DNA of 64,000 nt from a virus (IMGVR_UViG_3300050821_016964:5794-69793); one strand, 5' to 3'; shown: positions 14,282 to 36,732, numbered from the stretch's first letter. Translations and numbers: made by a program. The notes: generated by a model from the letters alone, not told the origin.

Positions 14282-16864
14282 CTAACCCACCGCCTCCGCT
14301 CCATTGACCGTGATCCTAAACACGCGGATAGGCTCCTCGACCTGGACCCCGGAGATCTCGGGGCTCACGTACCGATCGCCCGATACGTTAAGTTCCAAGT
14401 GCCCTTCCAGCCGCAAGATGGCTCGCCCCTGCCGCTGGGTGAGGTCGACGATGCCCACTGGGTCACCCGCCGTGATCAGGATGGAGCCGTCAGCATCCCG
14501 GGTCCACGGGCGCGGCTCTTCGATGTGGTTGTAGTAGAGCTGGAGATCCGCCGTCCCCACGCTGACCGGCACAAAGCTGATCTCCACGTCGCGGGCGTTA
14601 TCCGCTTCCAGATCGTTGCTAAAGCGAAACCAGCCTGCTCGCCACTGGTAGTCGATGCCGCCGACGACGTACTCATCCCCTGGCCGGGGGATGCACAGCC
14701 AGGGAGTGAGCACGTCCAGGCGGGTAGCGCTTCGTGCCACCACCCGGCGCCACTGCCCCTTGCTCGTGCCGGCCGTCATGAAGACCGCCAGGTTCACCGA
14801 GTCGGGCGAGAAGTTGGCGCCTAGATCCGTCAGGGAGGTGGCCGAGGAAGAGCCCACGGTTCCACGCACGGTTGCCCCTGGAGTCCGTAAGCCATCCGTC
14901 CAGCCCACGTTGAGACAGCCCATTTCGCGATGGTCCATACCAAAGAATACTCGGGCAATCCCCACATTGGCGTGCGTACTGGAGCAGACCGGACGATGGT
15001 ACTCCTCAATCCACCACCGGTTCTGTCTGTAGTTGAAGCAGATCGCATGGCGTGGATATTTACTCCCGGTCATCGCCACGAACCACCGGACGGTCGCGTG
15101 GACCTCCGAGTAGCAGGCGTGCCAGAACGTCGTGGGCGCGTCCCAGTTCACCCGGAGCGGGCTCGGGCTGTCGTCGCGGAAGATGTCCTGGATCGGCTCG
15201 CTGATCGCCTGAGAGATCCCCCCGGTGAAGGCGTGGATTCCCTGCTCGTCGAGCATGTACGCCGTGTCCTCGGCCTGCACCCAGCACCTTTGATTGATAC
15301 ACCCCCGCTGAGAGGACAAGAACACCGCGCCGTCCGTGGCGGGATCGTCCTTGAAGGTGAACCGGTAGATATGCCGGTTCTCAAGGATGTAGAGGAAACT
15401 GGAGAGCGCCATCAGGCCCGTGAGTTCGTCGCCATCCTCTTGGAGCTCCAGGGCATAGATGGGCGGCCAGCCCTCGGGAAGGCCCGCTTGGGTGTAGTAG
15501 ACGAGGCGCCATTCTCCCGGTGCGGGCCTGATGGCGTAGAACGCAAATAGGCTCGAACTATCGGTGTACAGGCTGTCCAGGGTCAGCACCTGGTTGACGG
15601 TATCTACCGAGTCGATCAGGTACGTCGAGTTGGCCCCGACCACGTAGAGCGTGCGCCCCGCCATCGTGACGGGCCAGCGGGTTCCAGTGCCGTAGACATG
15701 GTTCGACCCGGCCGTTACCAGGACGTGCCCATCCGTGTAGACCCCATCGACCGCGGCGAAGACACGGCCCAGGAACGGAGCCAGGGCCGACTTCCACGAA
15801 GGGGGGAAGCTGTTCAGGTTCGCCAGGCTGTTCCCCAACTCATCGAACAGGGGGACCGGCGTGTTGCCCAGGATGTCCGTGTCGGAGTTGTTGCTGACGA
15901 AGAGCGTCGACTCCAGATCCTGCGTGTCGATGTCCACGTAGAAGGTCGAGGCCTGCCCCGCTGTGTTCCTGAGGATCTGTCGCCCCACCACCTTGATCGC
16001 GAAGGGGCCATCGGGAAGGGGAACGTCCACGTAGGTTGTCTGGCTGACGGAACTGGCCCCCTGCATGCCAAGGGGAGTAAGAACCACATCAAACAGCAAG
16101 AACCTTGCGATAATCTCGGGCACAGTAAACGTTTGCACGTTCGTTACGGTTACCGTATCACCGGGAGGGTAAACTGTGATGTCCTGACCACCAGCGTAAA
16201 ACACACCGGTCGCCGGTGCTGTTTCATCCACGGTGTAATAGAGAAACGCCGAATTAATCCCAAAGCCATCAGGAAGCGAAGGACTATAGCCAGGAATAAA
16301 AGTGATCGCCGGGTTTGAAATCGGGCTCAGATCACTGAAATTCCCATATTCATCGTAGTAACGAACATAGGCAAAGTAATCGAAATTCTCTCCGCTGATC
16401 ACCGTGTTGATCGTCTCAGTGCCATTCTGTCCACCCGACCAAGATGTGGTGGTGGTCATGAGGATGTTGCTAAACGCCCCCGTCAGCCAGACCTGACCGA
16501 TCGGCTCATCCGGCGCGGGCACGCCCGCCACCTGCGCCTGGAGCTTCTGCCCGTCCCAGCGAAGCATGGGATCGATGCCGTTTGCCATCAGCACGAGGCC
16601 ATCGAAGACGGGCACGATGTTGAGGGGATACCCGGGCGTCAGATCATCCCGGATCACAGCCCGGAGAAGGGTGGGCTCGCCATCGAGGATGTTACGGCCC
16701 CACGACTGGGCCGCCAGGACGATCGTCGCTTGCGGCAGGATCAGGAAACCCGAGGTCTCGGAGCACGAGGCCGACAGGACGATCGTGGCCGTGGCCAGCC
16801 CGGGATACTGCGCCGTGGCCGTCAGGACAATCGTCGCGCTGGACGTGACGGTGTAAGTGGCCAT
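14282..16864 (-). CDS. tail stabilisation / tail tubular protein B-like (P22 gp10-like)
   Basis: 860 aa, beta-rich, 'DGDELTGL', 'RGCINQRCW', 'AISEPIQDIF' pattern typical of podovirus nozzle proteins. Confidence 0.65.
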   Translation of the reverse strand: MATYTVTSSATIVLTATAQYPGLATATIVLSASCSETSGFLILPQATIVLAAQSWGRNILDGEPTLLRAVIRDDLTPGYPLNIVPVFDGLVLMANGIDPMLRWDGQKLQAQVAGVPAPDEPIGQVWLTGAFSNILMTTTTSWSGGQNGTETINTVISGENFDYFAYVRYYDEYGNFSDLSPISNPAITFIPGYSPSLPDGFGINSAFLYYTVDETAPATGVFYAGGQDITVYPPGDTVTVTNVQTFTVPEIIARFLLFDVVLTPLGMQGASSVSQTTYVDVPLPDGPFAIKVVGRQILRNTAGQASTFYVDIDTQDLESTLFVSNNSDTDILGNTPVPLFDELGNSLANLNSFPPSWKSALAPFLGRVFAAVDGVYTDGHVLVTAGSNHVYGTGTRWPVTMAGRTLYVVGANSTYLIDSVDTVNQVLTLDSLYTDSSSLFAFYAIRPAPGEWRLVYYTQAGLPEGWPPIYALELQEDGDELTGLMALSSFLYILENRHIYRFTFKDDPATDGAVFLSSQRGCINQRCWVQAEDTAYMLDEQGIHAFTGGISQAISEPIQDIFRDDSPSPLRVNWDAPTTFWHACYSEVHATVRWFVAMTGSKYPRHAICFNYRQNRWWIEEYHRPVCSSTHANVGIARVFFGMDHREMGCLNVGWTDGLRTPGATVRGTVGSSSATSLTDLGANFSPDSVNLAVFMTAGTSKGQWRRVVARSATRLDVLTPWLCIPRPGDEYVVGGIDYQWRAGWFRFSNDLEADNARDVEISFVPVSVGTADLQLYYNHIEEPRPWTRDADGSILITAGDPVGIVDLTQRQGRAILRLEGHLELNVSGDRYVSPEISGVQVEEPIRVFRITVNGAEAVG

Positions 16865-16872
16865 TCATCAAG

Positions 16873-17750: not shown

Positions 17751-17751
17751 G

Positions 17752-20329: not shown

Positions 20330-23300
20330 CAGCTCACACTCGGTTTCTGCCCCACCACCAGTGACCCGGTCGCCAGGTTGCCCAGCACCAGATCCCCGGT
20401 GCTCCTGGCGATCGTCGCAGCGGCAACCACCGGGCCGGCCGGATCACCCCCGGGAAGCACCTCGAAGATCCCCAGGGCGATCCCCGTGAAGCCGCCCGTC
20501 GGCGCCTCGTAGAGGACGCCGTAACGTCCTACAGGATAGCCTTCCCCGATCCAGAGAGCGAGTGAGTAAACCTCATCGACCCGGGAATAGCGCAGGTGGA
20601 CCATGTTGGCCACCTCGACCAGCGCATGCGTATCGAGATCGTACACCCGCACCCAGGGCGTCCGCGTGGTCGGCTCCGTCGGCTGGCCATCCTGGTCGCG
20701 CACGATCGTCCAGAGGGGCACCTCCTGCCCCTGCTGGAACCGGCCCAGGTAGTCGCTGGCGAAGTCCACCTCGGGGAAGACGGACCGGGCTCGGGCCCGC
20801 AGGATGATCGTCGCCGTCGCCGACGTCGTCGCGTCCCCGTGGACGGAACAGACGGCCGAGAGGATCAGCACGGCCTCCGCGTCCGTCGGCAGGTTATGCA
20901 TCGTCGTCTGGCTGGCCGAGGCCGACAGGATCAGCGTAGCGCCGGCCTGCGCCATGATCTCGACGACGTACGGAAGCGGTCCATGCACCCACGGTTGCCG
21001 GCGCCGCACCGGCCGGATCACCTCGACCGGAGTCCGGAAGCTCGCCCCCGCCGGCGCCGGCCGGGCGGGCACGCATGCCGCCGCCAGGACGATCGTCGCC
21101 GTGGCGAACTGGACCGAGCGGTCATTCGTGACGGCGCTGGCCGCCAGGATGATCGTCGCCTCGGCCGACAAGAAGTAGGGCGTCGGGCCCTTCGCCGTCG
21201 CCCGCAGAATGATCTCCGCAGCACCAGCCACCGGGTACTCGCGATTGGCGCGAGCCGCCGCTGCCAGAATGATCGTGGAACCGACGGACCGGGGATAAGC
21301 CGTCGGGCCCTTCGCCGCCGCTGACAGGATGATCGTCGCCGTGGCCGCGACAGCCCATCCTGTCTTGTGGGTCGCAGCGGCATGCAGCACGAGCGTAGCC
21401 GTGGCCATCCCCTTAAGGCCGATCGCAGCCGTAGAACTCGCCCTCAGGATCAGACTCGCCGAACCGCTCGCCATCCAGCTCTCAGGTGGCCGGCTGCCGG
21501 TCCACTTCACCAGAAGATAATTACTGACCTGGGTGATCTCGGTCGGGGTCAATACCCGATTGTAGATCACCACTTCCATGATGTCGTTTGTGCATATACT
21601 GAATGGACCTCCTCCGATACACAGATTCGACCCCAAAACCAGCGCGTCCCCGCTGTTGGATGTGAGGTTTGCGCCATTAATGTACACTGCGGCACTCGAT
21701 CCATTACTGACGGCGCATGTTACATACAGTTCTCCTGGCACAATCGGACTTGCAAGGGAGAGCGGATCTTCAAAACCACCCGGATTCGCAGGTGATGGAT
21801 TATTTCCAGAATAAATGTCTCCGTTTAATCCATCCGCATTGATATACCAGACCGTTCCCTGTTCTAGATTAGTGATTTCCCCTGAAACAACTTTAACCGC
21901 TCCGTTCCAACCACCGTAAGAATGGTCCGTAAACTGCACAATCGGACCTCCAACATTAGCTTCCACCATCGACCACACCGCAAAGATGCTGATCGGCGTA
22001 TTTCCAGAAGCGCTGAACGGATTACCGCGTGGCCCGTTGTAAGTCGTCGCATTTCCAGGCGGTATCTTCGCCGAGATGAAGAGTGGCCCATCGTAAATCA
22101 CGTCCAGCCATGCAGCGTATTGATCAGCCTGCACGGCATTCGTCGGGTAAAACCTTAGCGACGGCAAATTACTGGGGCCATATAACTGGATCGCATAAAA
22201 CGCGTACGGCTGACCGACCGGAATTCCAGCATCAGGTCCCGGATAGCCACCAGGCTGGTTGTTGATGACGAGCGCCTGGTACGAACTCTGATCCTGCCAA
22301 CTCCAGATCTGATCTCCGGGAACCGCAGGATACTGAGTAATGGAACCAGATGCCGAAGGTGCGCTGGCGGAATAAACACCTTGGTTCGCGTCCAGCCAGA
22401 GCACGCAATTGGCGATTGCCAGAGGCGTCGTGATCGGAGGCACTCCCGGCGGAGGCAACGGCTGTCCGGAACCAGCCGGGTTTATCGTCACGGCAACCAG
22501 AGATGAACTGCTATAATTGTAAATCACGTTCTCAAAAAGAGAGCCACCGAATGACGCTACTACCATGTCGTTACCCAAAGGTAACGACGAAACAGAAATA
22601 GCGGCGCTCCCCGAACGAACCGGGGCCGTGCCCAAGTTCGTATTCGTCTCGCCCTCCAGAATGAAGTCCACGGTCCCGTAAGGCACCTCCGCACCGCCGA
22701 CAGCCGTGGTGACATTCGCGCTAAGTTCGACTGGCTGGCCAGGATACGCCGTGTTCGGAACAGCGATCAGAGTCGTTACTGTCTGCTCCACCGGGGGCGG
22801 TGGGGGCGGCGGCGCCGCATTTCGAATCCCTAGGTCCCACTTCAGCGTGAGATAGCCAATCACGTTCGCAATCTCGGTCGTCAGAAGCGCCCGGTTATAG
22901 ATGATCACCTCGCCGATGTCGGCGAACGTGTTCTGGGGTGCCATGGCGCCCAGAAAGAAGGCACCGCTGATGCCAAGCTGCGCGGCCGCTGGGTTCGTCG
23001 TGTAATTGATCCCGTTGGAATAAAACCCAGCCGTCGTGCCGTTTGACACGAACATGCAGCCATACGGCGTGTTGATGTTGAACGGCGCCGACTGCTGAGA
23101 GACAGGATTCAGGGTTCCGTCCAGTCCGCAGAACAGCATCGCGCCATAAGCGCCGATATACCAATTCGCTCCATTACTCAGAGTCTGCTGGCTCGCGATC
23201 GACGGTGATCCCCACACCACGAAGATCGTGATCGGGGTCGCCGAAACCGTATTGAAAGGGATCGTCCCAGGAGCGAACTCGATCCCTAGGAAGCAATTCG

Positions 23301-24091: not shown

Positions 24092-24125
24092 GGGACGCCC
24101 CCTTTCCGATTCGTTCACTTTTGGT

Positions 24126-24144: not shown

Positions 24145-24146
24145 GT

Positions 24147-24326: not shown

Positions 24327-24340
24327 GGCACACCTCCTCG

Positions 24341-24766: not shown

Positions 24767-26188
24767 CTACTGAGAGTTAGGGAAGAATTGGGCGGGCATG
24801 TACTTCGGTGAAACCCATCGTGGCCGCTGGCCACCCATTGCGCGGCCCTGGTAGCTTCGGCTGTCTGCGGCCATGGCTTCTTTCAAAGCGGTATTGTACG
24901 CCTCAACCGCTGCGCCTTCATCCTGAAGGTGACGAGCTATAGATAATTGTTTTTCTATCCCCCGGAGCATCGCCGTCTGCATACTCCCGAGCTCGACGTC
25001 TACGGGATCGCTGATCGCGTAGAGAGAGTTGAGCACGCTGGCCGTGGGCGCGTCAAGCACGGTCAACTGGGTCGGGCTCAGCACGGCGTTCACCACCAGT
25101 TCCTGGGTCGGAGGCGCCTCGCCGATCCAGCCCGTGGGTGCGATGGTGGGCGTGCCGATGCGCAGCACCGATCCCGCCATAGAGGAGTCGAAGGTTGTGC
25201 CAGCGCCGGTCACTGTGAGGGAGTTGGCATTGAGCGTCACAACGCCCGCGCTCACGTTCTCCCACCGGAGCGGCCGGGACCGCCTCTGGTACATGAAATC
25301 GATCGTCTTCTCGATCGCTGGATAGGGATGGAATCCGACGCATAACCTTCCTAGGTACAACCGGTTACCGCGAATACTGTAGAACCGCGGCGTACCCGAC
25401 GAATACTGAAACCGCTGGAACCAGAGCTGATCGGTGGGGTCCGAGTAAGTCAGACCGCCAAAGTTGCCTTCGAAGATCGCCGTGTCCTGCTTGATGAAAT
25501 CCTCGGGCAGCAGATAGTCATCCTGATAAAGCGTGTACGCCGTGGTCGGAGGAGACCGCCAGGTCCCCGAGAGGCCGTCCCAGGGCGTGAAGGAGAGGCC
25601 CGCCCCTGAAGACCCATTCAGGCTGAAGTTGTTCGCGTCCAGGACCGTGACGGCCGCCCAGTTGGCGTTGACGACCGCCATCAGTTGGCCGGTCACGGCC
25701 ACGAGGACGTTCTCGATGATCACCGGATCACCCGTCGTCAGGCCGTGCTGGGGACTCGTGATGATGATCGGCGTGTTGAAGATGATTCCCGTGATCGGCT
25801 GCGGATCATAGTCGAGGTCCATGTCGAAGTTGACCTGCTCGGTCAACAGCAACGTCTGCGCATTCACCACCTGCTGGACGTCGGAGGTCACCACGCCGAT
25901 CCGGACCTTGCACAGGGGACCCGCCCACGAGGGGAGCGGGCCGGCCTGGTAGAGGAGCAGTTGCCGGGTCATGTTGTTGTACGCCGCGAACCCGGTCACG
26001 AAGGGAGGATTGGTCAAGATCCGGTTGTGGTTGATGAGATAGGTCCAGAGCCTGACGTTGATCAACTCCCGGTAGGCGCTCTGACAGGCCCGCCTCGCAT
26101 CCCGCAGCGCCAGCGCGTCCGGAGTGCCGCCGAGGAAGTCGATGGCGTGCTGAACAGCATCACAATAAACGAAAAATTCTATGCTCAT
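24767..26188 (-). CDS. head-tail adaptor / tail tubular protein A-like
   Basis: 'YLLPEDF', 'GTPRFYSI', 'FHPYP...IDFMYQRR' adaptor pattern plus FCCH-like insert; downstream of portal. Confidence 0.65.
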   Translation of the reverse strand: MSIEFFVYCDAVQHAIDFLGGTPDALALRDARRACQSAYRELINVRLWTYLINHNRILTNPPFVTGFAAYNNMTRQLLLYQAGPLPSWAGPLCKVRIGVVTSDVQQVVNAQTLLLTEQVNFDMDLDYDPQPITGIIFNTPIIITSPQHGLTTGDPVIIENVLVAVTGQLMAVVNANWAAVTVLDANNFSLNGSSGAGLSFTPWDGLSGTWRSPPTTAYTLYQDDYLLPEDFIKQDTAIFEGNFGGLTYSDPTDQLWFQRFQYSSGTPRFYSIRGNRLYLGRLCVGFHPYPAIEKTIDFMYQRRSRPLRWENVSAGVVTLNANSLTVTGAGTTFDSSMAGSVLRIGTPTIAPTGWIGEAPPTQELVVNAVLSPTQLTVLDAPTASVLNSLYAISDPVDVELGSMQTAMLRGIEKQLSIARHLQDEGAAVEAYNTALKEAMAADSRSYQGRAMGGQRPRWVSPKYMPAQFFPNSQ

Positions 26189-27074: not shown

Positions 27075-27076
27075 GG

Positions 27077-27289
27077 CTATTTCTCCCGCACGTCGTACAC
27101 GGCTTTCGCCAAGGCAATGATCAGCCGCTCGGCATCGTCGGGGGAGAGCGACACGTCGATGGGCTCCCCGTCGTCCGCGATCACGAACGAGATCCCGACC
27201 CGCACAGGCCCCCCGTCCATGGGATGGAGACCGTCCACCGACAGGAACTCCAGATCGGTGTACGGCGTGGCTACCGGATCGTCGTTCAT
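27077..27289 (-). CDS. hypothetical protein
   Basis: ORF track, overlaps portal stop. Confidence 0.5.
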   Translation of the reverse strand: MNDDPVATPYTDLEFLSVDGLHPMDGGPVRVGISFVIADDGEPIDVSLSPDDAERLIIALAKAVYDVREK

Positions 27290-29355
27290 CGCGTGTTCCT
27301 CGGAGCCCCGTTGGGACCACCCTGGGATGTCGAAGCGCTCGCGTGCTGAGGCGGAGGCGCCGCCCCATTGCGACCTGGCGGCGTGCCACCTGGAGATGAT
27401 GGAGACTCGCTTGTAGGTGCAGGGGGTGGAGGCATAGGTAATTGGAAAAGCGCAGGGTTAAGATCTCGAGTTTTCGCCCAAAAAGCCAACAAATTGTTGA
27501 TCGGCCCGAGCTGGCCGGTGCCCTGGGCGAACTGGTTAAACACCGGCAGCAGGATCTGCATGGCGCTGTCGGCATTGGCCATGTCCCGGTCCCGGTTCGG
27601 CTTGCGGGTCGACCCCGCCTCGATCCGGAACTCAAGCTCGTGCATGCACGCCAGATCCTTCGACGTGACGTGGAGCGCCCACAAGGCGCTGGCCGTCACC
27701 CCCAAGATCGGCAGCACGTCGTTGGGCTCCAGGAGCATCCGGGCGGCGATCCCCTCCTTGCGGGCCGCCTCCGTCATCCAGGCCTCGACTCGCTTCGCCA
27801 TGTCGTCAGGCCGGATGTTCTGGTTCTGCGACTTAATGTCTGACTCGGTGGCGCTCCTGTCCTGCTTCATCTGCGACGTGCCGTAGAAGATCTCGTTCAG
27901 CCCCACCCGCTTGTCAAAGTTCCGCTCCACCGCCTCAATAATCTTCCAGATGTCGGCATTCATCTGAGGGAACTGGAGAATCTGCACGCACTCCCGGATA
28001 TCCCGGTTCTGCGTGTCGAGCTCCACCATCGACAGGTCCGCCCCCTCCAGGACAGTCATCTTCACCTGGTCCGACATCTCCTTGAGGATCGCCACCACGT
28101 CCCGCAGGGTGTTCTTGATCTTGGAGCACACAAAGCTGTATGCCCAGCAGAGGAACCGTAACTCGCCAAGCGCCGCCTTGAGGATACTCTGGGGCCACGG
28201 TGATCGTGGTACCGTGTGAAAATCGAGCACAGAGACGGGCCATAAGATCCCAGCCCCCTTGTTGGGATCGGCCCAGAAGGGAACAGGCCATGCGAGTCGC
28301 TCCTTGATGTGCTGGATACCGTCGCCAGGAGAGCCGTCGCCCAGCATGGGGAGATCCTGGATCTCCGGCGGCAGGTTCAGGGGGAAGTTCACACCCCGGG
28401 CCACCACGAGGTAAACGAAGTCGCCCACCAGGGGGTCCAGGATCTCGCTGTACTCGTTCAGATCGCCCGGCAGGAGATCGCTCTCGCCCCGGCTGATCCC
28501 CGAGCCCGAGAGCCGGCCGCCTACGCCCATGCGGCTATAGATCTCGTAGTAGACCATCAGGTCGTTCGTACGGCCCCGCTGCCGGTCCAGGTACCGACGG
28601 TTCGACTCCACCTCCGTCTGCATGTTGGCGCTCTCATACGCGCCCTTCAAGGAGCCCTTCTTCAGGCCAAACCGCCGCTCGACGGCCCAGATCGGCTGAC
28701 AGATCATCCGGGCGATCCACCACGCTTTGGTGAAGTCTTCGGCATCCGGATCGACGAACAGGAAGTCGACTGAGTCGTAGAAGCTGCCAACCATCTTGGT
28801 CTTCGAACCAGGCGGCGTGATCATGCCCGTCCATAAGCAACCCCTTCCCTTGATGATCGCCTCTTTGATCGCTTGATCCGACTCATCCTTCAAGCCCAAT
28901 TCGTTCGGCGTCCAGTTCAGATACGCACTGAGGAGAAGCGACTTGAGCGCGTCCAGATTGGTCCGGGCCTGTTCCTGCTGCTGGGTCACCATCCAGAGCA
29001 TGGGATCCGGGATGGCCGTGGGCGGGATCTCGACGGGGAGGCGGGGATTGACCTGGCGGATGGGGTTCTGGGCGTAAAGGAGAGGGCCGAAGATCGAGAC
29101 CACCTCAAACATCTTGCAAAGCGTCATCCGGAAGTTGGGCTCTTGCACATCAATCGATACACCACGAGATGCTTGTATGTCTCCCTTGTACACTAAATTA
29201 TTGAAGTTGCCGCCCTCGGGGTGGTAGAAATCGAAACATTCGTCGGCTGTCTTCTGGAAGTGGGCGTCCTTGTACTCCTTCGCCTTCATCAGCTTATCGA
29301 GCCACAGACGGCAGAGTGGCCCAAGTGCAAACTCGCCAGTCGTCGCGGTCTGCAT
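27286..29355 (-). CDS. portal protein (P22-like)
   Basis: 689 aa; 'FVDPDAED', 'RSATESDIK', 'FRIEAGSTRKPN', Pro-rich tail; downstream of terminase. Confidence 0.85.
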   Translation of the reverse strand: MQTATTGEFALGPLCRLWLDKLMKAKEYKDAHFQKTADECFDFYHPEGGNFNNLVYKGDIQASRGVSIDVQEPNFRMTLCKMFEVVSIFGPLLYAQNPIRQVNPRLPVEIPPTAIPDPMLWMVTQQQEQARTNLDALKSLLLSAYLNWTPNELGLKDESDQAIKEAIIKGRGCLWTGMITPPGSKTKMVGSFYDSVDFLFVDPDAEDFTKAWWIARMICQPIWAVERRFGLKKGSLKGAYESANMQTEVESNRRYLDRQRGRTNDLMVYYEIYSRMGVGGRLSGSGISRGESDLLPGDLNEYSEILDPLVGDFVYLVVARGVNFPLNLPPEIQDLPMLGDGSPGDGIQHIKERLAWPVPFWADPNKGAGILWPVSVLDFHTVPRSPWPQSILKAALGELRFLCWAYSFVCSKIKNTLRDVVAILKEMSDQVKMTVLEGADLSMVELDTQNRDIRECVQILQFPQMNADIWKIIEAVERNFDKRVGLNEIFYGTSQMKQDRSATESDIKSQNQNIRPDDMAKRVEAWMTEAARKEGIAARMLLEPNDVLPILGVTASALWALHVTSKDLACMHELEFRIEAGSTRKPNRDRDMANADSAMQILLPVFNQFAQGTGQLGPINNLLAFWAKTRDLNPALFQLPMPPPPAPTSESPSSPGGTPPGRNGAAPPPQHASASTSQGGPNGAPRNTR

Positions 29356-29364
29356 CGATCACCC

Positions 29365-29718
29365 CTACAGCGGAGATGTGCCAGCCAGGGAGGGGGCAAC
29401 GCGAACCGCCGCCTTCTTCGCCTCAAACGCGGCGAGCACCTCGTTGATCGCAACGTCGCGTGGCGTCAGCTCCCAGACGCCACCTTCGTGGTTCGGGTTC
29501 TGCTTGAGCCAGGGATCATCCTTGTGGTGCGCGCCCAGCCGGAAGGTGTGGTCCTTGGTGTTGGTCGTGTGCAGCGCGAGACTGATCGTCTTCTCGCCGA
29601 CAGCGATCACCACCCCCGTGCTCGCCATCGGGCCTGCCCGGTTCCAGTTCCAGAGCACGGTCATGCCGAGCTCGACTCGCGGCATCTTCCACTCAGGTTC
29701 ATGGGTTCCGTTCTTCAC
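29365..29718 (-). CDS. hypothetical protein
   Basis: GGAG RBS, GTG start. Confidence 0.5.
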   Translation of the reverse strand: MKNGTHEPEWKMPRVELGMTVLWNWNRAGPMASTGVVIAVGEKTISLALHTTNTKDHTFRLGAHHKDDPWLKQNPNHEGGVWELTPRDVAINEVLAAFEAKKAAVRVAPSLAGTSPL

Positions 29719-29975
29719 GGGAAAACTCCTGGCTTGAACGCAGCCGCATTGATCAGGTCCAGCATCGCCTGAACCACGACGATCAGAAAGGGTCGGCTCC
29801 GCGCGTCCGGAAAGACCTCGGTGGCGTTGGCGAGCACGGCCGTCAAGAACGCGCCCTTGGTCCAGCCCTTCTCGAAAACCTGCCACGCCACATTCTCCAG
29901 CGCAACCAGGTTCACCTCGCCTGGAAGCACCGTCATGACGAGTTTGATCGCTGCCCAGATCTCAGGCCAGAGCAT
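29715..29975 (-). CDS. small hydrophobic protein (holin-like candidate)
   Basis: GGAGG RBS, hydrophobic segments. Confidence 0.4.
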   Translation of the reverse strand: MLWPEIWAAIKLVMTVLPGEVNLVALENVAWQVFEKGWTKGAFLTAVLANATEVFPDARSRPFLIVVVQAMLDLINAAAFKPGVFP

Positions 29976-30020
29976 CAGGAACCTCCCTCGGGATAAGACG
30001 TTTCGTCGAGAGTACCAGAA

Positions 30021-31487
30021 TCACGGCACATGGGGAAGCGCCCCGGCCATGCGCGCCTTCCACCGCCCGTTCGAGAAGGTCCCCGGGGCATAGTCACGGC
30101 TCTCGGCCTCCTTCAAGATCGCCTGGCACTCGGCGGGGGAGGGGAGATAGCCGGTCCGCTGCATGAACTGGAGCTTGAGCCGGTAGTAGTGGTCGAAGAT
30201 CCGGTTCGACAGCCACCGGTCCTTGAGGTCGTAGTGAAGTGTGCGCTTGTAATCATTGTGCTTGATCGTGCTGGCCGTCTCGCCCGGAAACGTCCCGGCC
30301 CGGATGCCAAAGTGCCTGAGCATCAGGTAGAACAGCGTGTCATCGCAGCCCCAGCCCTGGAGCGTCTCGTCGTACCCGCCGGCCGCGAAGTAGGACGCCG
30401 GATGCAGGACGACGGAGCCCCCCATGTGGGAGCGAAGCGGGGCGGCGATGTGGTAGTGGTTCTCCCGGAACGTGCGCCTGACCTCAGTCGCCCAGGAGGG
30501 CTCCACGAGCACGTCGGCATCGAGGAAGGCCCAGATCTCATTGGACCGCTCGGCGTGGCCACCTGGCAGATCTCCAGCCGCGTGGCGAGCTCCGGCGTTC
30601 CGGGCCGCGCCCAGGTTGAACTTCTCCTTGCCGGAAACCGTGATGACCTGAGCCCGGGGATCGTTCAGGCTCCGCACCCAGTCCCCCGTGCCGTGGGGGC
30701 ACGACCAGTCGACCACAAGGACGAAGACCTTGGGTTGATCGAGCCAGCGGGGAACCGTCTGCTTGAGGTGATCGAGCCGGCTCATGCAGGTCGTGATGAT
30801 CCGGATCGGCGCGTCCGTGGTGAACGAGTATCCCGTCTCGACCTTGTGCGGGTGGGTGACGGCGTAGGGGAATCCCTGGTTCGGCGGTGCCACCTTGGCC
30901 CGGGAGCCGATCTCGTGCCAGGGGCCAAAGGGGATCTCCAGGCTCCGGAGCACATACACCAGGATCTCGTCCAGCCCCAGGCGACCAAGCGGGTACCAGA
31001 GGTGAATCTCCTCCTTGTCGTCGCAAAATGGCCAGATCTCCTGAAGCTCCGGCGAGTCGAGGATGCCCGAGGCCAGGATCTTCTCGGCCGCCTTCCGGGA
31101 GAACACCACACCCCCCCCGCTGATCCGCTCGCTGATCTCCCCCCGGTTCAGAACCGTTCCCGCCACCGGGTACTGGGGGATCGACCGCAGCGGACGCCAG
31201 AACCGGGTATCAGGGTCAACACGAAGAATCCAGGGAACATCCATGCTCAGACCCGCCGTCAGCATCCGGGACCACCACTGCCCTCCACACTCAGCCCGCC
31301 GGAGATAGAATCCATCCAAGTAGCGCGCCTTGTGCTGCTCGCAGAGCGCGGCGTAAGGCGGACAGTCCACGCCGTCCGAAAGAACCTGCACCGGCGCGTC
31401 GGGTGCACTGGCCCTCAGGTTCCGCAAGCAGTAATCTAGCTGCACTGGGCCTTCAGCGGCGACGGTCAGAACAACCCCGAAATTCAT
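30021..31487 (-). CDS. two-domain GT-A glycosyltransferase (GT2/GT7-like)
   Basis: RVDPDT and FLDADV DxD motifs, 'VVDWSC', 'FNLGAARNAG', 'GGYDETLQGWGCDD'. Confidence 0.8.
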   Translation of the reverse strand: MNFGVVLTVAAEGPVQLDYCLRNLRASAPDAPVQVLSDGVDCPPYAALCEQHKARYLDGFYLRRAECGGQWWSRMLTAGLSMDVPWILRVDPDTRFWRPLRSIPQYPVAGTVLNRGEISERISGGGVVFSRKAAEKILASGILDSPELQEIWPFCDDKEEIHLWYPLGRLGLDEILVYVLRSLEIPFGPWHEIGSRAKVAPPNQGFPYAVTHPHKVETGYSFTTDAPIRIITTCMSRLDHLKQTVPRWLDQPKVFVLVVDWSCPHGTGDWVRSLNDPRAQVITVSGKEKFNLGAARNAGARHAAGDLPGGHAERSNEIWAFLDADVLVEPSWATEVRRTFRENHYHIAAPLRSHMGGSVVLHPASYFAAGGYDETLQGWGCDDTLFYLMLRHFGIRAGTFPGETASTIKHNDYKRTLHYDLKDRWLSNRIFDHYYRLKLQFMQRTGYLPSPAECQAILKEAESRDYAPGTFSNGRWKARMAGALPHVP

Positions 31488-31496
31488 AGGTGTCTC

Positions 31497-32048
31497 GTGA
31501 ACAAGGTGCTAGGAATCGGGCTAAATCGCACGGGAACCAAGAGCCTCAACAAGGCACTCCGCCAACTGGGCTTCAACGTCCACCACTATCCTTCGGACTC
31601 GATCACCGCCATGGAGGTCGTCTCGGGACGCCCCTACTCGATCCTCGAACGGTGCGACGGGCTGACGGATCTGCACGCCACGGTGCGGTTCAAGGAACTC
31701 GACGAGCAGTACCCGGGGTCCAAGTTCATCATGACTCTGCGATGGCATGGAACATGGCTCGATTCCTGCCGCCGGCACTTTGAGTACTACAAGGCCAATC
31801 CTGATGCTCAGCCTATCCGAAGCATGAGCCGCACACTTCACCTGAAAGCCTACGGCGCCGACGAATACGATGAAGCCACCTTCCAGGCGGCATACCAGAG
31901 GCATTCCCACGAGGTCGCCGAACATCTAGGAAGACAAGGACCTGAGAAATTGCTCCTCCTGGATGTCGTCGGCGGCCAAGGCTGGGAGAAGCTCTGTCCC
32001 TTCCTCGGCGTCCCGATCCCCGACCGGCCCTTCCCAGTCACACGCTAG
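31497..32048 (+). CDS. sulfotransferase-family protein
   Basis: 'KVLGIGLNRTGTKSL..AL..LG', 'YPGSKFIMTLR', 'GWEKLCPFLGVPIPDRPFP'. Confidence 0.85.
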   Translation: MNKVLGIGLNRTGTKSLNKALRQLGFNVHHYPSDSITAMEVVSGRPYSILERCDGLTDLHATVRFKELDEQYPGSKFIMTLRWHGTWLDSCRRHFEYYKANPDAQPIRSMSRTLHLKAYGADEYDEATFQAAYQRHSHEVAEHLGRQGPEKLLLLDVVGGQGWEKLCPFLGVPIPDRPFPVTR

Positions 32049-32263
32049 ACCAAGCCGATGGCGAGCACCTGCTGAGCGATCCCCGACGCTCGCGAGTCCT
32101 TGGGATCGAACCACAGGATCTCCGGCGCACCGGGCGCTGCGCCCGAGCAGGCGTCCACGATGGTCGCGCTGTCAACCGCCATGTACGCGACGTCGTTCCA
32201 TGCCCGGATCACCAGGGGCGTCTCATCGGGCACGTTGAGCTTCTTGAACTCGCCGAACGTCAC
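32045..32263 (-). CDS. hypothetical protein
   Basis: GGAGG RBS, GTG start. Confidence 0.45.
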   Translation of the reverse strand: MTFGEFKKLNVPDETPLVIRAWNDVAYMAVDSATIVDACSGAAPGAPEILWFDPKDSRASGIAQQVLAIGLV

Positions 32264-32805
32264 CGAAAACCTCCGAGCAGGCCAACCTGCCGACAGCCGT
32301 CCGGTCCACACACGGTTGCGGAAGCACCAGGAACCGGCGCATAGGTCACTGGAGGCAGAGCCGGCGCTACCGGCACGACGGATGTCGGTATCGTGTAAGT
32401 CCGCGTTATCGTCACTGGCGCCACCTCGGACGTCCTGACAACCTTGCGGGCCGGTCCCCGCGCCCGTGCGTTCCGCAGTTCGATCCAGTTCATCAGCCGA
32501 GTCTGGTCGGTATCCTCCCAGTCGAAACCGGAGACGTCCCGCGCCACGTACACCCGCACCGGAGGCGGAGCTGGCTCATGAATGATCTGGGGCGCAGGCG
32601 GCGGTTGAGCCGCAAGCCTGGACAACCTATTATCGATCGCCACGATCTCAGCCATCAATCTTCCGATCGCCTCCATCGTCTCGTGCCGGTCCGCCGCCAT
32701 CCGCTCGATGACGGCAGCCGACCGGTCCACGGGAGGAGGCGGAGGCGCCACGGGAGAGCCGAACATCCCCTGGCCAAGAACCGCAATAAACAGGAGCGTG
32801 ATCAC
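32260..32805 (-). CDS. secreted/membrane Pro-rich protein
   Basis: N-terminal signal-like segment, C-terminal CGPDGC. Confidence 0.55.
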   Translation of the reverse strand: MITLLFIAVLGQGMFGSPVAPPPPPVDRSAAVIERMAADRHETMEAIGRLMAEIVAIDNRLSRLAAQPPPAPQIIHEPAPPPVRVYVARDVSGFDWEDTDQTRLMNWIELRNARARGPARKVVRTSEVAPVTITRTYTIPTSVVPVAPALPPVTYAPVPGASATVCGPDGCRQVGLLGGFR

Positions 32806-33698
32806 GATATTCCTCCCTCAGTCGAAGTTGCCGTAGTTCCATGGCGTCGGTGGTGGCGGTGGTGGTGGCGGTGGGCTTGGCCCGGGTCCGGGCCCCGGGG
32901 AGGGATGGGAGGCACCTGCCCACCTCGGAGGGCAGCGAGATCCGCCTGGAGTGCGACCTTGTCGACTCCGAACGGGTCCAGATCACCGTTCGAATACCAG
33001 TCCGGCGAGAGTTGCGCGTAGCACTCCTCCACCCACGCCGGGTTGACGAGAGCCGCCTTGGTGATCGTTCGCGTCGACGCCCAGGTGCAGATAGGAACCC
33101 CTGACTTGTTATAGCCGCAGCTACACACACAGTGCCCACCAGCGATCTGGGCGGCCGCCCCCGTCACGACGTCCCAGAGGTTCGGCGCCGTCGTCCACCC
33201 CTGGGGCAGGTTGATCCCAAAGGTCAGAGGGCCGAAGAGGACCATCGCGACCTGGAGCTCCAGCCAGTTGGTCCAGTCCACCGAAACGTAATCGTCGTAC
33301 TTATGAACCGCGCCCGCCAGGGTCAGCCCAGTCGCCTTGGTGTAATCGAGAACGTCTGTGATCACACAGCCGTTGTCGCCCGGTCCGCAGATCGTCGTGT
33401 AGGAGTTCCCCGTCTCCGCGTCGGTGGCGATCACCGGGGTTCCCGACTCGTTCCCGGTGTAGATGCCGATCTCGTGCTCGACGGCGGCAATGACGCAGTC
33501 GCCATCCTGATCGTTCAAATACATCTGAGCGATCGCCGACGTCGCCTTCCCGCTCAGGTCCAGCGTGTCCGGTGGCGCGGCCGTGGCCCCGAACCGAAGA
33601 TAATCCCGCAGCCGGAGGACCACCTTCTCCGAGCGCGGAGGACGCCGCCCGAGATGCACCACTCGTCCGTCGTGAAGCGTGACTCTCTCGACTGGCAT
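32802..33698 (-). CDS. papain-like cysteine peptidase (possible lysis enzyme)
   Basis: 'MYLNDQDGDCVIAA' (Cys), 'GGHCV' (His), 'TWA'. Confidence 0.7.
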   Translation of the reverse strand: MPVERVTLHDGRVVHLGRRPPRSEKVVLRLRDYLRFGATAAPPDTLDLSGKATSAIAQMYLNDQDGDCVIAAVEHEIGIYTGNESGTPVIATDAETGNSYTTICGPGDNGCVITDVLDYTKATGLTLAGAVHKYDDYVSVDWTNWLELQVAMVLFGPLTFGINLPQGWTTAPNLWDVVTGAAAQIAGGHCVCSCGYNKSGVPICTWASTRTITKAALVNPAWVEECYAQLSPDWYSNGDLDPFGVDKVALQADLAALRGGQVPPIPPRGPDPGQAHRHHHRHHRRHGTTATSTEGGIS

Positions 33699-33707
33699 CG
33701 GACCTCC

Positions 33708-34148
33708 CTACAAAGGCCACCACCAGCGCAGGCCGGCGGCGTGATCAAAGAACTTCTGAGCATACGCCGCCCGCGTGGCCGCGTCCTTGGGCTCGGTCCC
33801 CGCAGGCACCAGGGCCGAGAAGGGCCCCGAGTACTTCTGGAAGAACGCCGCCTGCCGGGCCGTGGTCGCCGTCGTCTGGAGCGCGGCCAGAGCCGCCTCG
33901 ACGGTCCCTCCTGCCGCGATCACGTTCCCCGCCGCCGTGAAGCCGTCCGCTTCTGCGCTACACACGTCCGTCCGGTTCCGGTGCCCATCCCGGATCTCCG
34001 GCACATCGGTCCAGAAGAAACCGGCGACTCCGCGGTTGTCCCAGAGGACGACCAGGGAGAGCAGCACGATCACCACCCATTGCCAGTTAATGGACGTGGG
34101 CAGCGAGATGGCGAATCGGCGGCGGGTCGGAAACGAGATGTACGACAT
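33708..34148 (-). CDS. membrane-anchored hypothetical protein (start uncertain)
   Basis: TM segment WQWVVIVLLSLVVLW. Confidence 0.5.
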   Translation of the reverse strand: MSYISFPTRRRFAISLPTSINWQWVVIVLLSLVVLWDNRGVAGFFWTDVPEIRDGHRNRTDVCSAEADGFTAAGNVIAAGGTVEAALAALQTTATTARQAAFFQKYSGPFSALVPAGTEPKDAATRAAYAQKFFDHAAGLRWWWPL

Positions 34149-34641
34149 GCGGCTTTTCCTTCGGCGCTTTCGACTCATGGTGACGCACCACGGGTGAAGG
34201 GGCAAGACCCGCCGGCGCGGCCGCAGCGACCGCCGAAGTCATTGCAGCCGGCGCCGGCAGGATGGGTACGGGGTCCGGCGCGACTGACGCCTGTGTACCT
34301 CCAGGCATCACGGTTACGCCGAAGTACCCGTATCCCTTGTAGCCGATCGCGTCGGTCACGATCACGGAGACGACGTAGTTTCCAGGCACCGCATAAACGT
34401 GTTCCAGATCGAAGGATTGACCCTGAAGGCCAAGCGCCTCTGATCCTGAGCCGTCGCCGTAGTCGACAGTGGCTGTGCAGGAGCTTGGGGCTGGGTCGGT
34501 GAAGACTCCGGCCCGGCAGAATTCTCCGGGCGTGATGATGGCGTTGATTCCGGCATCGACCACCGGGGGGATAGGTTCGATCAGCGGTGCCAGGAGACTC
34601 CGGCACTCAAGCCGATCGAAGGTGAGGGGACGAATCTTCAA
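34087..34641 (-). CDS. PKD-domain protein with planctomycete LEPR-XLL-like motif
   Basis: 'RPLTFDRLECRSLLA'; 'TATVDYGDGSG...HVYAVPGNYVVSVIVTD'. Confidence 0.75.
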   Translation of the reverse strand: MKIRPLTFDRLECRSLLAPLIEPIPPVVDAGINAIITPGEFCRAGVFTDPAPSSCTATVDYGDGSGSEALGLQGQSFDLEHVYAVPGNYVVSVIVTDAIGYKGYGYFGVTVMPGGTQASVAPDPVPILPAPAAMTSAVAAAAPAGLAPSPVVRHHESKAPKEKPHVVHLVSDPPPIRHLAAHVH

Positions 34642-34644
34642 GAG

Positions 34645-34743
34645 TGTCTCCGGTGGGATTCAAACCCACAGACACGGTGCCTTGCGTTCCTATCTACCCG
34701 CGGCATTTCGCGTCGGCCTTTTGAGAACGGGCACTTCAGAGAC
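34645..34743 (-). ncRNA. tRNA-like structured RNA (acceptor stem and T-arm, no D/anticodon arm)
   Basis: GTCTCTG/CGGAGAC+A acceptor, GTGGG-TTTGAAT-CCCAC T-arm, central GTGCC/GGCAC and CGTTC/GAACG helices. Confidence 0.5.
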
Positions 34744-34811
34744 GCCGCATTTCCGTGGACCGCAACCCACTAGGGCGCGTGCTCTCTTCGCTGAGCGGCA
34801 GAGACAGAGAC

Positions 34812-34840
34812 AGCCTACCACGATTCTCCCAGATGTGCAA
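34812..34840 (-). promoter_or_regulatory. sigma70-type promoter TTGCAC-N17-TAGGCT (extended -10)
   Basis: Exact 17-nt spacing; same GTGGTAGGCT as the promoter at 40813-40822. Confidence 0.6.
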
Positions 34841-34845
34841 ACGAC

Positions 34846-34947
34846 GTCGCCCGGCACTTCCGAGAAGCACCGAGCGACAGAGGGATCGTACGCGACCTAC
34901 AAGTCCATCAAGTTTCAATCCGCCCCCAGAGTTAAATCCAGGGGAAC
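34846..34947 (-). CRISPR. mini-CRISPR unit A: one repeat, 33-nt terminase-derived spacer, hairpin
   Basis: Repeat 34912-34947 = GTTCCCCTGGATTTAACTCTGGGGGCGGATTGAAAC; spacer 34879-34911; 15-bp hairpin 34846-34878 that pairs fully (G-U) only on the minus strand. Confidence 0.8.
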
Positions 34948-34949
34948 TC

Positions 34950-34978
34950 ATTCTCTCAATAACCACAAATTAGGTCAA
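34950..34978 (-). promoter_or_regulatory. promoter of mini-CRISPR unit A, TTGACC-N17-GAGAAT
   Basis: 17-nt spacing, TGn extension, abuts the repeat; -35 overlaps terL stop. Confidence 0.65.
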
Positions 34979-36732
34979 GCCAGAGTCACCCCCCGCTTGT
35001 CGCCGCCCTGCTTGCGTGCCCATGCCTTCTCCGCTGCTTTAATACTTTTGTACGTCGCGTACGAACCCTCTTGACTCTTCTTGTGCGCGAGCTTGGGCTT
35101 GTGGTAGTATAAACCAGTGTACATACACAGATAGCCTAGATTATCACATTGGTGGCTGTCCTTCGCCAGCGGCTTGTCTGTCACCTCACCGGCAACGACC
35201 TTGAACGCGTACCGCTCCATGTTGCGCACCAGGTGCGGGCAGGAGCCGCGGAGAATCCGGATCTTGGTGGTCCCGTCAGGCCGCACCCGGAGCCAGTCCT
35301 TGATCCGCAGAATGCGGCCCGTGGGATCATCGTACCCGTAAGTCAGCATCGTGCCACAGGTAGGCGTGCGGATCTTGAGCGTCTTGAACGCGTTCCGGTA
35401 CTGGGTCTCGGGCAGCATGCCGGAGCCGAGCTCACGCAGGTTCCCCCCGTGCGAGTCGAACAGGTGGGCATACATCTCCAGGTCGCCGATGTGGTCCTTC
35501 AGGGCCTGGGCTAAGAGCGCCGCATCGCAGCCCCGGATGTACGCTTCGTCGTAGAAGTACACGTAGTCGCCGTAGAGTAGGGGGTCCACCCCTGGCGTGC
35601 CGTCGTACTTCATGGGCGGGACAGCACAGAAGAGGAGCGCGCCGACCTTGAACCCGGGATCGATCGAGCAGAAGTGGCACCAGGACATGGGGATCGCGAA
35701 CGGCTCGACACCATGGACGCCGCGGGGGAAGAAGTGGCTCTCGAAGACGCGGGTGCCCGAGATCGCGAAGTCGCCGTCGATCCGGAGCCGGCGATCGTCG
35801 TCGGTCAGGCTGCTCTCGAAGTCTCGCTTGGCCCGCTCGGGCATGTGGACGTTGTCCCAGATCGACAGGAAGAACTCCTGCACCAAGGGCGTGGACGTGT
35901 CCCCCGTCTCCGCCTGCTCCTCGGCGATCGCCCCCGCCCGCTGGTGGAGCTCGAAGAGCGCCTGCGTCCCGACGTGCGGGGTGGCGCCCCACCAGAAGAA
36001 ACCGTTGCGGTCAATCAGGCGCGCCATCGCCTCGGTAAACCATCCTTCGTTCACTACCTCCTCGTCAAAAATACATATGTCGACATCTACACCCGAGATT
36101 GCTTCGGGGTCCGCCTTGGACGAGTAAAAATTGCACTCCCACCCGTTCTTGAGGACCAGTTTGGTAGGAATCCCCGCCGCCTTCTTCTCCCACGAGATGT
36201 CCTTGATCAGCCGGGGGGGGATCAGGGGAGGCGCGGGCTTGCCCCGGCCCAGGTCCCCGGGTCGCCGGGCACGCCAGACCTTCGTGGCCGGGTCCCGGAT
36301 CATCTGGAACGAGCCGGCCCGGCCGAGCTTGCGCCAGATGACCTCGCCGATCTTGTTCATGTCCCGCGCAACGACGATGGCCCGGCCGTTCTCCCGCGGG
36401 TACTTGTCCGGGTTCGGGTGCATCCCCGTCATCGCCCAGCCGAGCTCGATCATCGAACTGGTCGTCTTGCCCGAGCGGTTCGAGCCGATCGCGACCCGCT
36501 GCCTGGCCATCGAGTTGTGGAACGCCCACTGAGCCGGCATCGGCTCGTAGATCCGCAAGGCCTCGCACTGGCGCCGCTCCAGCTCCAGGAGCATCGCCCG
36601 GACCCGGGCCACCTCCGTCGGCGCCAGCGTCCCCCCCTCGCCAGGGAGATGCAGCCCCGCGTTCTCCAGGACGACCGGATCGAATGCCCCGTGCCGGTGC
36701 CGCGGACCCCCGATATTCCGCCGCTCGGGCAT
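34975..36732 (-). CDS. terL: terminase large subunit
   Basis: Walker A GSNRSGKT, Walker B ICIFDEE, 'WGATP', nuclease 'SIDPG' and 'SHQCDNLGY'. Confidence 0.93.
   Translation of the reverse strand: MPERRNIGGPRHRHGAFDPVVLENAGLHLPGEGGTLAPTEVARVRAMLLELERRQCEALRIYEPMPAQWAFHNSMARQRVAIGSNRSGKTTSSMIELGWAMTGMHPNPDKYPRENGRAIVVARDMNKIGEVIWRKLGRAGSFQMIRDPATKVWRARRPGDLGRGKPAPPLIPPRLIKDISWEKKAAGIPTKLVLKNGWECNFYSSKADPEAISGVDVDICIFDEEVVNEGWFTEAMARLIDRNGFFWWGATPHVGTQALFELHQRAGAIAEEQAETGDTSTPLVQEFFLSIWDNVHMPERAKRDFESSLTDDDRRLRIDGDFAISGTRVFESHFFPRGVHGVEPFAIPMSWCHFCSIDPGFKVGALLFCAVPPMKYDGTPGVDPLLYGDYVYFYDEAYIRGCDAALLAQALKDHIGDLEMYAHLFDSHGGNLRELGSGMLPETQYRNAFKTLKIRTPTCGTMLTYGYDDPTGRILRIKDWLRVRPDGTTKIRILRGSCPHLVRNMERYAFKVVAGEVTDKPLAKDSHQCDNLGYLCMYTGLYYHKPKLAHKKSQEGSYATYKSIKAAEKAWARKQGGDKRGVTLA

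Follow-up and report, generated by a model that had tools for sequence, protein, structure and literature searches.

Short islands of A/T-ending codons interrupt the packaging and portal genes of a GC-rich soil phage; the islands are real and lack a single common cause. Two of them, on the Walker B motif and on a nuclease-domain motif of the large terminase gene terL, most likely mark empty intein homing sites. The fuller reading, in which these two sites are footprints of intein and homing-endonuclease traffic and the rest are of mixed origin, is put forward tentatively, at somewhat under an even chance.

The window, a 64-kb stretch out of the 69.8 kb (~63% GC) of this soil phage, was compared with relatives, whose proteins and loci carry P and L numbers, respectively. 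Its gene set consists of 63 calls made from ORFs and third-position GC content (GC3), without a gene finder. All 63 calls were searched for A/T-ending codons (AT3) with a maximal-segment scan, against a null in which the third letter of every codon is drawn from amino-acid-specific usage; calibration was done gene by gene, with thresholds from 2000 simulations. Thirteen islands score at least 9, compared with 0.50 by chance, and nine score at least 10.5, compared with 0.10 by chance (300 simulations). The genes and sites discussed below are as follows.

36037..36105, minus strand: AT3 island on Walker B, terL codons 210-232, 13/23 A/T-ending in the scan (P=0.058; per gene 0.0025)
35110..35151, minus strand: AT3 island on the nuclease-domain motif HQCDNLGY, terL codons 528-541, 10/14 A/T-ending in the scan (P=0.021)
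35017..35071, minus strand: terL C-terminal AT3 island (35017-35049, 7/11; scan P=0.28, per gene 0.0125, the weakest of the islands) and spacer counterpart (35039-35071)
34975..36732, minus strand: terL, large terminase, 585 aa (phrog_2, E=3e-19; Terminase_6N)
34880..34947, minus strand: CRISPR-like repeat unit 1 (34912-34947) with an adjoining spacer-like 33 nt (34880-34912)
37329..37456, minus strand: repeat unit 2 (37388-37423), with a promoter-like site on one side (37456-37428) and a terminator-like hairpin on the other (37362-37329)
27286..29355, minus strand: portal-like gene, 689 aa (homologue P0227 matches P22_portal, 29.9 bits, cut-off 26.1)
29143..29178, minus strand: AT3 island, portal codons 60-71, 10/12 A/T-ending (P=0.066)
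27388..27486, minus strand: AT3 island, portal codons 624-656, 24/33 A/T-ending (genome-wide P<0.0005)
24767..26188, minus strand: adaptor-like gene, 473 aa (homologue P0314 matches SU10_adaptor, 28.9 bits, cut-off 27; the P0242 match is weak)
24905..24958, minus strand: AT3 island, adaptor codons 411-428, 14/18 A/T-ending (P=0.003)
26153..26182, minus strand: AT3 island, adaptor codons 3-12, 9/10 A/T-ending (P=0.18)
25319..25378, minus strand: mild AT3 excess, adaptor codons 271-290, 10/20, under the scan threshold
14930..15065, minus strand: claimed tail-protein patch, within chance; the gene encodes a virion structural protein (PHROGs)

The preliminary description had named eight A/T-codon patches, and its quoted codons are found in the sequence as written. 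The scan recovers seven of the eight; the exception is the tail-protein patch, where 17 of 46 codons end in A/T against 10.2 expected (pointwise P=0.017) and the segment score stays below 5. To call the surrounding genes near-uniformly G/C at third positions was too strong, as GC3 is 0.86 in terL, 0.80 in portal, and 0.79 in both the adaptor gene and the gene for the 860-aa virion protein. The placement of the patches on conserved motifs holds no more than loosely: when whole islands are ranked by how often the residue found in the window also occurs in 45 terL and 40 portal relatives, they fall between the 6th and 46th percentiles, and adaptor codons 411-428 lie within a weakly conserved stretch. 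Contigs from four other soil runs reproduce, with 0 differences, the terL nuclease, terL C-terminal and adaptor islands together with part of the portal tail island, which makes assembly chimeras unlikely.

Homologues are plentiful. For terL, 172 were found (top identity 75%), and 87 of 89 searched loci (L003-L091) have a homologue of the portal-like gene; the window's portal-like protein itself has no family match in PHROGs and Pfam profile searches. LAGLIDADG-type inteins of relatives sit at exactly the junctions of both terL catalytic islands. The junction I219|C220, occupied in P0067 and P0121, maps to 36075/36076 within the Walker B island, and the 5' edge of the nuclease-motif island coincides with junctions Q528|C529 (occupied in P0036) and D530|N531 (P0121, P0060 and L024). 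Seven of eight insert-bearing proteins (5 terL, 3 portal) match intein-type domains (LAGLIDADG_3, Hom_end, Intein_splicing or Hint), several of these matches scoring under Pfam's curated cut-off; L091 and L024 also match such domains. The window carries Cys as the +1 residue at both islands (C220 and C529); in its closest relatives, P0002-P0005, residue 220 is A, C, V and V and residue 529 is V, V, A and A. Amino-acid identity to P0002, the closest of these, is 83% in the Walker B island and 93% in the nuclease-motif island, with 78% over terL as a whole, and both islands are synonymous-only.

Intein junctions coincide with two of the three terL islands (P=0.024, for a hypothesis framed after the terL islands had been seen) and hold only two of the seven window islands over all three genes (0.48 expected, P=0.077). 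In the window, the terL Walker A junction and the adaptor N72|M73 junction both lack an island, and the portal junction shows only a hint of A/T excess; the mild excess in adaptor codons 271-290 begins at the relatives' junction Y270|S271. No recognisable intein or homing endonuclease was found among the phage ORFs scanned with Pfam, and a scan of IMG/VR turned up no allele with a Walker B intein.

A family-wide test, with the window excluded, measured the excess of A/T-ending codons within ±8 codons of intein junctions at five sites. The excess is 29.9 at Walker A (P=0.0007), 19.2 at the portal junction (P=0.017) and 11.1 at Walker B (P=0.06); none is seen at the terL nuclease junction (P=0.45) or, among 15 relatives, at adaptor Y270|S271 (P=0.83). 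Fisher's combination of the five sites gives P=0.0008. Along terL, the relatives' top two A/T excess peaks lie 8 and 12 codons past the Walker A and B junctions, and better-conserved positions have no larger excess (r=-0.14 and -0.33). Single loci illustrate the range: in L091 the intein at Walker A has A/T-rich stretches of its own (51/73, 10/10 and 18/22 codons), and the extein tract after it is A/T-rich as well (11/13 codons); the intein-free L011 has an island (18/31) spanning the Walker A junction, and the intein-free L010 one (17/25) spanning the portal junction G172|C173, where the +1 residue is Ile; in L024 an intein is present and its flanks lack A/T richness.

Because the two synonymous-only islands sit on intein junctions, a nuclease other than a CRISPR one is their likely cause. 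Intein-free alleles would be cut at these junctions by the intein's endonuclease. Thereafter, a tract could have been copied in together with the intein, the intein then being lost precisely, or silent changes that blunt endonuclease recognition could have built up. Either route could retain the +1 cysteine in a short stretch of atypical synonymous codons, and silent changes would go towards A/T because almost all codons in the genome already end in G/C. The choice of route, like endonuclease blocking at the window's sites, is something we infer. Precise intein loss is, for this phage, a hypothetical step. The amino acids within both catalytic islands are of the phage's own-clade type, which makes a distant A/T-rich donor an improbable source.

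The other islands have other histories. Adaptor codons 3-12 reflect a general A/T enrichment at gene starts: across 43 genes, AT3 drops from 0.28-0.33 in codons 1-15 to 0.16-0.21 deeper in the gene, which explains this island. The portal tail island falls within a proline-rich, variable C-terminal tail (55% amino-acid identity to P0122 versus 91% overall), a linker that is A/T-enriched in several relatives. Portal codons 60-71, which show lower amino-acid identity to the closest relatives, an island not common to L010 and no intein in the relatives examined, are unexplained, as are adaptor codons 411-428. The terL C-terminal island is plausibly the carrier's own version of the sequence that its CRISPR mini-array targets, in which differences placed mainly beside the repeat would prevent self-targeting.

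The evidence for such a mini-array lies next to terL. Immediately to the left of repeat unit 1, positions 34880-34912 encode EGSYATYKSIK, identical in 11/11 residues to terL residues 555-565 (35039-35071); 25 of the 33 bases are the same and all eight differences are synonymous, which bears out the earlier claim that this patch is the counterpart of a spacer. Six of the eight fall within the 10 bases adjoining the repeat, and all four repeat-proximal codons differ between spacer and gene (P=0.045), with rare codons in the window's terL copy and common ones in the spacer. Repeat unit 1 weakly matches CRISPR-DR9 in Rfam (minus strand, E=0.27) and has a promoter-like site on the same strand (34978-34950); each of the two repeat units has such a site upstream, on the strand whose transcript would read repeat first and spacer second. 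In contigs from the same soils, copies of the repeat are separated by 35-37 other letters, the layout of a CRISPR array.

These observations suit a reading close to that of the preliminary description: silent changes over spacer-length stretches would let lineages survive host arrays or rival phage mini-arrays that target essential genes, the phage itself also bearing a spacer directed at its own terL in un-recoded form. The reading stays alive because a CRISPR-linked island occurs in terL too; several islands are about one spacer in length (11, 12 and 14 codons), and archaeal viruses that carry mini-arrays and have a mutated target locus of their own are described (PMC6858448). As the cause of the islands at large it is nevertheless rather unlikely. 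The spacer-linked island is the weakest of all and lies in a stretch of amino-acid divergence from the closest relatives. Its codons are the same in 5 of 11 spacer-gene pairs, a share that equals background, the same-codon fraction being 0.53 between the portal genes of the window and L010 (84% protein identity), so the spacer could come from an ordinary diverged relative. L010, the one relative compared as DNA, has 9 of the 11 residues in common with the spacer-like stretch and no nucleotide match. Escape from type I and II CRISPR usually takes just one or two changes.

Nor were spacers found for the other islands, in searches that were all very shallow. The flank of repeat unit 2, the one other phage-borne flank, has no counterpart within the window; four spacers from co-occurring soil arrays, a tiny sample, gave 0 matches at up to 3 mismatches; and degenerate peptide patterns returned nothing in a very shallow search of IMG/VR. 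Pfam scans found no Cas families in the phage. The exact fit to intein junctions and the +1 cysteines are not predicted by protospacer recoding, and the proposal that the remaining patches are genome-wide scars of spacer escape is not upheld: two synonymous-only islands sit on intein junctions instead, and of the patches said to hold synonymous change beyond chance three do not fit, the tail-protein patch being within chance and the portal tail and terL C-terminal islands divergent in amino acids.

Short tracts might instead derive from lower-GC relatives at co-infection, by gene conversion without a site-specific nuclease. Family GC3 spans 0.42-0.98, the islands are lineage-specific and placed differently in the window and L010, the portal tail, terL C-terminal and portal 60-71 islands show lower amino-acid identity to the closest relatives, and lower-GC relatives tend to share more in-island codons with the window, on small counts. 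Yet the amino acids of both terL catalytic islands are clade-native, no donor stands out, and homologous exchange with no local break would normally involve longer tracts than the 30-70 nt seen within motifs; such mosaicism is distinctly unlikely as the general source. Least likely of all are rare-codon clusters or embedded signals selected for slow translation during folding, open mRNA or internal promoters: gene starts and ends are generally A/T-enriched, which accounts for 26153-26182, and the portal tail island recurs in 6/29 relatives, 100-200 nt ahead of the next gene's start, but the window's three terL islands are A/T-rich at the same positions in 0/29 relatives (L074 has an island at the same C-terminal end and none on the two catalytic motifs), any island occurs in just 8 of 30 GC-rich terL genes with the window counted, L010 portal islands lie elsewhere, and 0/6 sigma-70-like sites within 24000-37500 coincide with an island. 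A position-conserved rare-codon signal fails for terL.

Intein footprints and the mini-array may also belong together. On this broader, doubtful proposal, dense silent-codon islands would serve as armour against two kinds of sequence-specific nuclease, intein homing endonucleases and phage-borne crRNAs, that contest the same essential genes, and the phage pairs armour with a weapon, a spacer on the un-armoured allele of its own terL. If so, the phage would exclude close kin without a recoded terL, and codon islands could show where nucleases once attacked the genomes of uncultured phages.

Rare-codon clusters, local runs of non-preferred codons, and A/T-rich gene starts are known; the phage resembles the latter in the genome-wide A/T enrichment of its first 15 codons and differs in that its internal islands are not position-conserved among homologues. 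RNA anti-CRISPRs are solitary CRISPR-repeat units in phages (Camara-Wilpert et al., 2023; PMC10651486), and the solitary repeat mimics here are alike; single units with the repeat's first 16 nt are also found in other IMG/VR contigs (21 stretches). Unlike those units as there described, unit 1 adjoins a spacer-like match to a phage gene, needless for a pure repeat decoy. Virus-borne mini-CRISPR arrays act in interviral conflicts (Medvedeva et al., 2019; PMC6858448), and the likeness extends to a cas-less repeat and spacer, a target locus near the array and a difference in the carrier's own locus. By comparison with the systems in that account, the virus here is a bacterial phage from soil whose repeats come as single units instead of repeat-spacer-repeat, the target is terL, and the carrier has eight silent changes, not a point mutation or deletion; no rival virus perfectly matching the spacer was found, L010 having been compared as DNA. 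Inteins are known in the P-loop and Walker B motifs of phage TerL and in portal proteins (PMC5050341), their invasion co-converts flanking extein sequence and their removal requires precise deletion (PMC10643990, PMC5050341), and empty alleles may resist invasion (PMC10643990, PMC5050341; cf. PMC1654191). A limited literature search found no description of codon islands as markers of empty intein sites. The TerL P-loop and Walker B motifs and the portal are likewise intein sites in the phage's relatives; in the phage, by contrast with the homing systems of these accounts, the sites are empty, and the signal is a silent run of A/T-ending codons that keeps the +1 Cys and lies within a GC-rich gene.

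The clustering of A/T-ending codons in this phage is far beyond chance, and the resulting islands are real but of mixed origins. The source record (69,793 bp, IMG/VR) is rated complete; the window comprises its bases 5794-69793, has a GC content of about 63%, and is matched by near-identical contigs in four other soil metagenome runs. On its minus strand, genes for structure and packaging form a block that includes:

34975-36732, minus strand: terL (phrog_2, Terminase_6N)
27286-29355, minus strand: portal-like gene, 689 aa, with a homologue in 87 of the 89 loci searched (L003-L091)
24767-26188, minus strand: adaptor-like gene, 473 aa, with homologues matching SU10_adaptor

The 689-aa protein itself has no family match, and its homologue P0227 matches P22_portal above the cut-off; via such chains of homology, the gene names used in the preliminary description are reasonable. 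Some portal homologues come from Isosphaeraceae and Singulisphaera records, a hint that the wider phage family infects planctomycetes. A glycosyltransferase gene (minus) and a sulfotransferase gene (plus) occupy 30021-32048, between terL and the portal gene, within the packaging module. A 20-45-nt motif (GCCGCCAGGACGATCGTCGC and variants) occurs in seven copies inside two structural genes (16710-16837 and 20795-21339) and probably encodes a repeated peptide. Two gene boundaries (8739-8776 and 24113-24150) share a 38-nt element, 87% identical between them, that contains a GCGCAGGCCCTGCGC hairpin and may be a terminator or a regulatory site.

Sixty-three genes were called from ORFs and third-position G/C content (GC3), and maximal segments enriched in A/T-ending codons were scored against a null that preserves the amino-acid sequence of each gene and its overall fraction of such codons. 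Genome-wide, 13 segments reach a score of at least 9, vs 0.50 expected, and nine reach at least 10.5, vs 0.10 expected. The background is less even than the near-uniform third-position G/C first described, at 79-86% in the named genes. Seven of the eight patches picked out by eye are recovered, with genome-wide P from <0.0005 to 0.28, but the one in the tail protein is not (17/46 codons vs 10.2 expected, with every segment scoring 5 or less). Outside those eight patches lie four further strong islands:

46584-46628: in a ParB-like gene
21718-21963: 82 codons, in a 1079-aa Big_3_5/Laminin_G_3 protein
43812-43967: at the 5' end of a Prim-Pol gene
16217-16303: in an 860-aa virion protein

Since the Prim-Pol domain does not begin until residue 54, the start of that gene may be miscalled. 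Several islands are reproduced with no differences in independent contigs of other runs, which makes chimeras unlikely and rules out an assembly chimera for the islands so covered. Among the differences listed for the four runs, whose cover is patchy, none falls inside any island; the covered islands are identical in those contigs, and the variant listing says only that.

The two islands on the catalytic motifs of terL stand apart. Long terL homologues carry inserts, matching intein or LAGLIDADG families, at three motifs (residues numbered as in the window terL):

K89|T90, Walker A: protein P0025, locus L091
I219|C220, Walker B: proteins P0067 and P0121
Q528|C529, nuclease motif: protein P0036
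D530|N531, nuclease motif: proteins P0121 and P0060, locus L024

Inteins of mycobacteriophages are known from the TerL P-loop, TerL Walker B and the portal (PMC5050341). In the window terL, one strong island (codons 210-232) spans the Walker B junction and the other (codons 528-541) begins at the nuclease junction; the Walker A junction has no island. Both keep Cys at +1, the residue after the junction; at these positions Ala or Val predominates in the closest relatives. Otherwise the amino acids of the two islands are native to the clade, and identity to the homologue P0002 is 0.83 and 0.93 vs 0.78 overall. Truly synonymous-only change is seen in these two islands and in no other. The best-supported new reading, which we hold tentatively, is that the two catalytic islands could mark empty intein homing sites.

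The same link was sought in relatives, excluding the window, within 8 codons on either side of the terL and portal junctions in dereplicated GC-rich genes; with sequences >90% identical to a kept one and genes with GC3 <0.72 dropped, 45 and finally 30 of 89 terL rows remained, and 40 and finally 29 of 86 portal rows. A/T-ending codons are in excess at the Walker A junction (29 terL genes, P=0.0007), marginally so at Walker B (29 genes, P=0.06), and not at the nuclease junction (29 genes, P=0.45). Portal inteins occur at G172|C173 in the homologues P0125, P0139 and P0150, and the excess is present at that junction (28 genes, P=0.017). P0125 and the terL protein P0036 are encoded on one 67.7-kb contig, with inteins in both genes. 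At adaptor Y270|S271 there is no excess in 15 genes (P=0.83); the window adaptor has a mild 10/20 A/T run beginning there. Combining the five sites by Fisher's method gives P=0.0008, and the excess does not follow conservation. Individual loci illustrate the pattern: L091 has an A/T-rich tract (11/13) in the extein after its resident Walker A intein, itself A/T-rich, the intein-free L011 has an 18/31 island across the Walker A junction, and the intein-free L010 has a 17/25 portal island centred on G172|C173, with Ile at +1.

Against empty homing sites, only two of the seven window islands over three genes coincide with a junction (P=0.077; for terL by itself, P=0.024), and the hypothesis was formed with the data already in view. 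The intein in L024 has ordinary flanks, no intein or homing endonuclease is recognisable among the scanned ORFs of this phage, and no intein-bearing allele was found at the DNA level for Walker B (in IMG/VR) or for Q528|C529. A search of IMG/VR with terL alone returned no relative. The best DNA relative in alignment-based scans is L010 (60% identity in terL, 84% in portal); relatives on GTDB contigs reach at most 39%, except one 104-residue fragment at 45%, and among 401 sampled genomes of a single phylum the relatives reached only 40%.

CRISPR-directed recoding of the two catalytic islands is possible, but one further phage-borne repeat flank and four soil-array spacers, a minimal sample, have no match in the window, and degenerate peptide patterns for the two islands gave no hits in IMG/VR. 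Plain mosaic import fits the islands in variable regions but not the two catalytic ones, and a donor search by in-island codon identity produced no standout (counts of 5-17 codons). The portal 60-71 and adaptor 411-428 islands are in poorly conserved regions; at neither site was an intein seen, and no spacer among those sampled matches. The portal tail island (27388-27486) lies in a proline-rich stretch with only 55% identity to a relative whose overall identity is 91%, and it recurs at the same tail in 6 of 29 relatives. The island at 26153-26182 corresponds to codons 3-12 of the adaptor gene, and A/T enrichment of gene starts is genome-wide. Position-conserved rare-codon clusters are rejected for terL, as the three window islands recur in 0/29 relatives and any island is present in only 8 of 30 terL genes, window included. 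None of six sigma-70-like promoter sites falls inside an island.

At present the result is a caution: within a single genome, islands that look alike have three or more different causes. Should silent A/T-ending islands in GC-rich phage genes turn out to mark empty homing sites or protospacers, past nuclease conflicts in uncultured phages could be located by a simple codon scan with no intein, spacer or host in hand. Such a scan would also yield evidence, at the sequence level, for the stage of the homing cycle at which inteins are lost or alleles become resistant.

The single cause put forward at the outset, scars of repeated spacer escape, is unsupported beyond its anchor, which concerns a CRISPR-like repeat in two copies flanking terL:

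34912-34947, minus strand: first copy
37388-37423, minus strand: second copy

In soil contigs the second copy recurs with 35-37 unrelated nucleotides between occurrences, an arrangement like that of a CRISPR array. On the minus strand, a sigma-70-like site lies upstream of each copy (units 34880-34978 and 37329-37456), the second copy is followed by a 13-pair terminator-like hairpin, and each unit resembles a small transcription unit. Single units with the same 16-nt repeat start are also present in IMG/VR loci L092-L112 (21 stretches returned), usually followed by a CCCCCGG...CCGGGGGAAAC hairpin; these contigs share no close terL with this phage. Two copies are exactly 2512 nt apart in contigs L094, L105 and L107; in L107, an unrelated phage, the gene between the copies is no terL relative. 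A DNA methylase at L107:6612-8516 is interrupted by a Hint and LAGLIDADG insert; inteins are thus also present in other phage contigs bearing this repeat. Downstream of terL and the mini-array is a 770-nt gap, where a T-arm-like hairpin (GTGGG-TTTGAAT-CCCAC; 34650-34675, minus) yielded no tRNA or tmRNA by ARAGORN and nothing in Rfam above the E=0.1 threshold.

The anchor itself holds: 34880-34912, adjoining the first repeat copy, encodes EGSYATYKSIK, identical to terL residues 555-565. The two stretches differ at eight silent positions, of which six fall within the 10 nt adjoining the repeat, and all four repeat-proximal codons differ (P=0.045). The terL counterpart is the weakest island (7/11 codons, per-gene P=0.0125) and sits in an amino-acid-variable stretch; 5/11 codons are identical between spacer and terL, an ordinary level of divergence here, the same-codon fraction being 0.53 between portal genes 84% identical in protein. 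Directed recoding of this counterpart would be a plausible reading. In archaeal viruses with mini-arrays, as described by Medvedeva et al. (PMC6858448), the carrier locus is mutated and the target lies close to the array, and this phage matches them in both respects.
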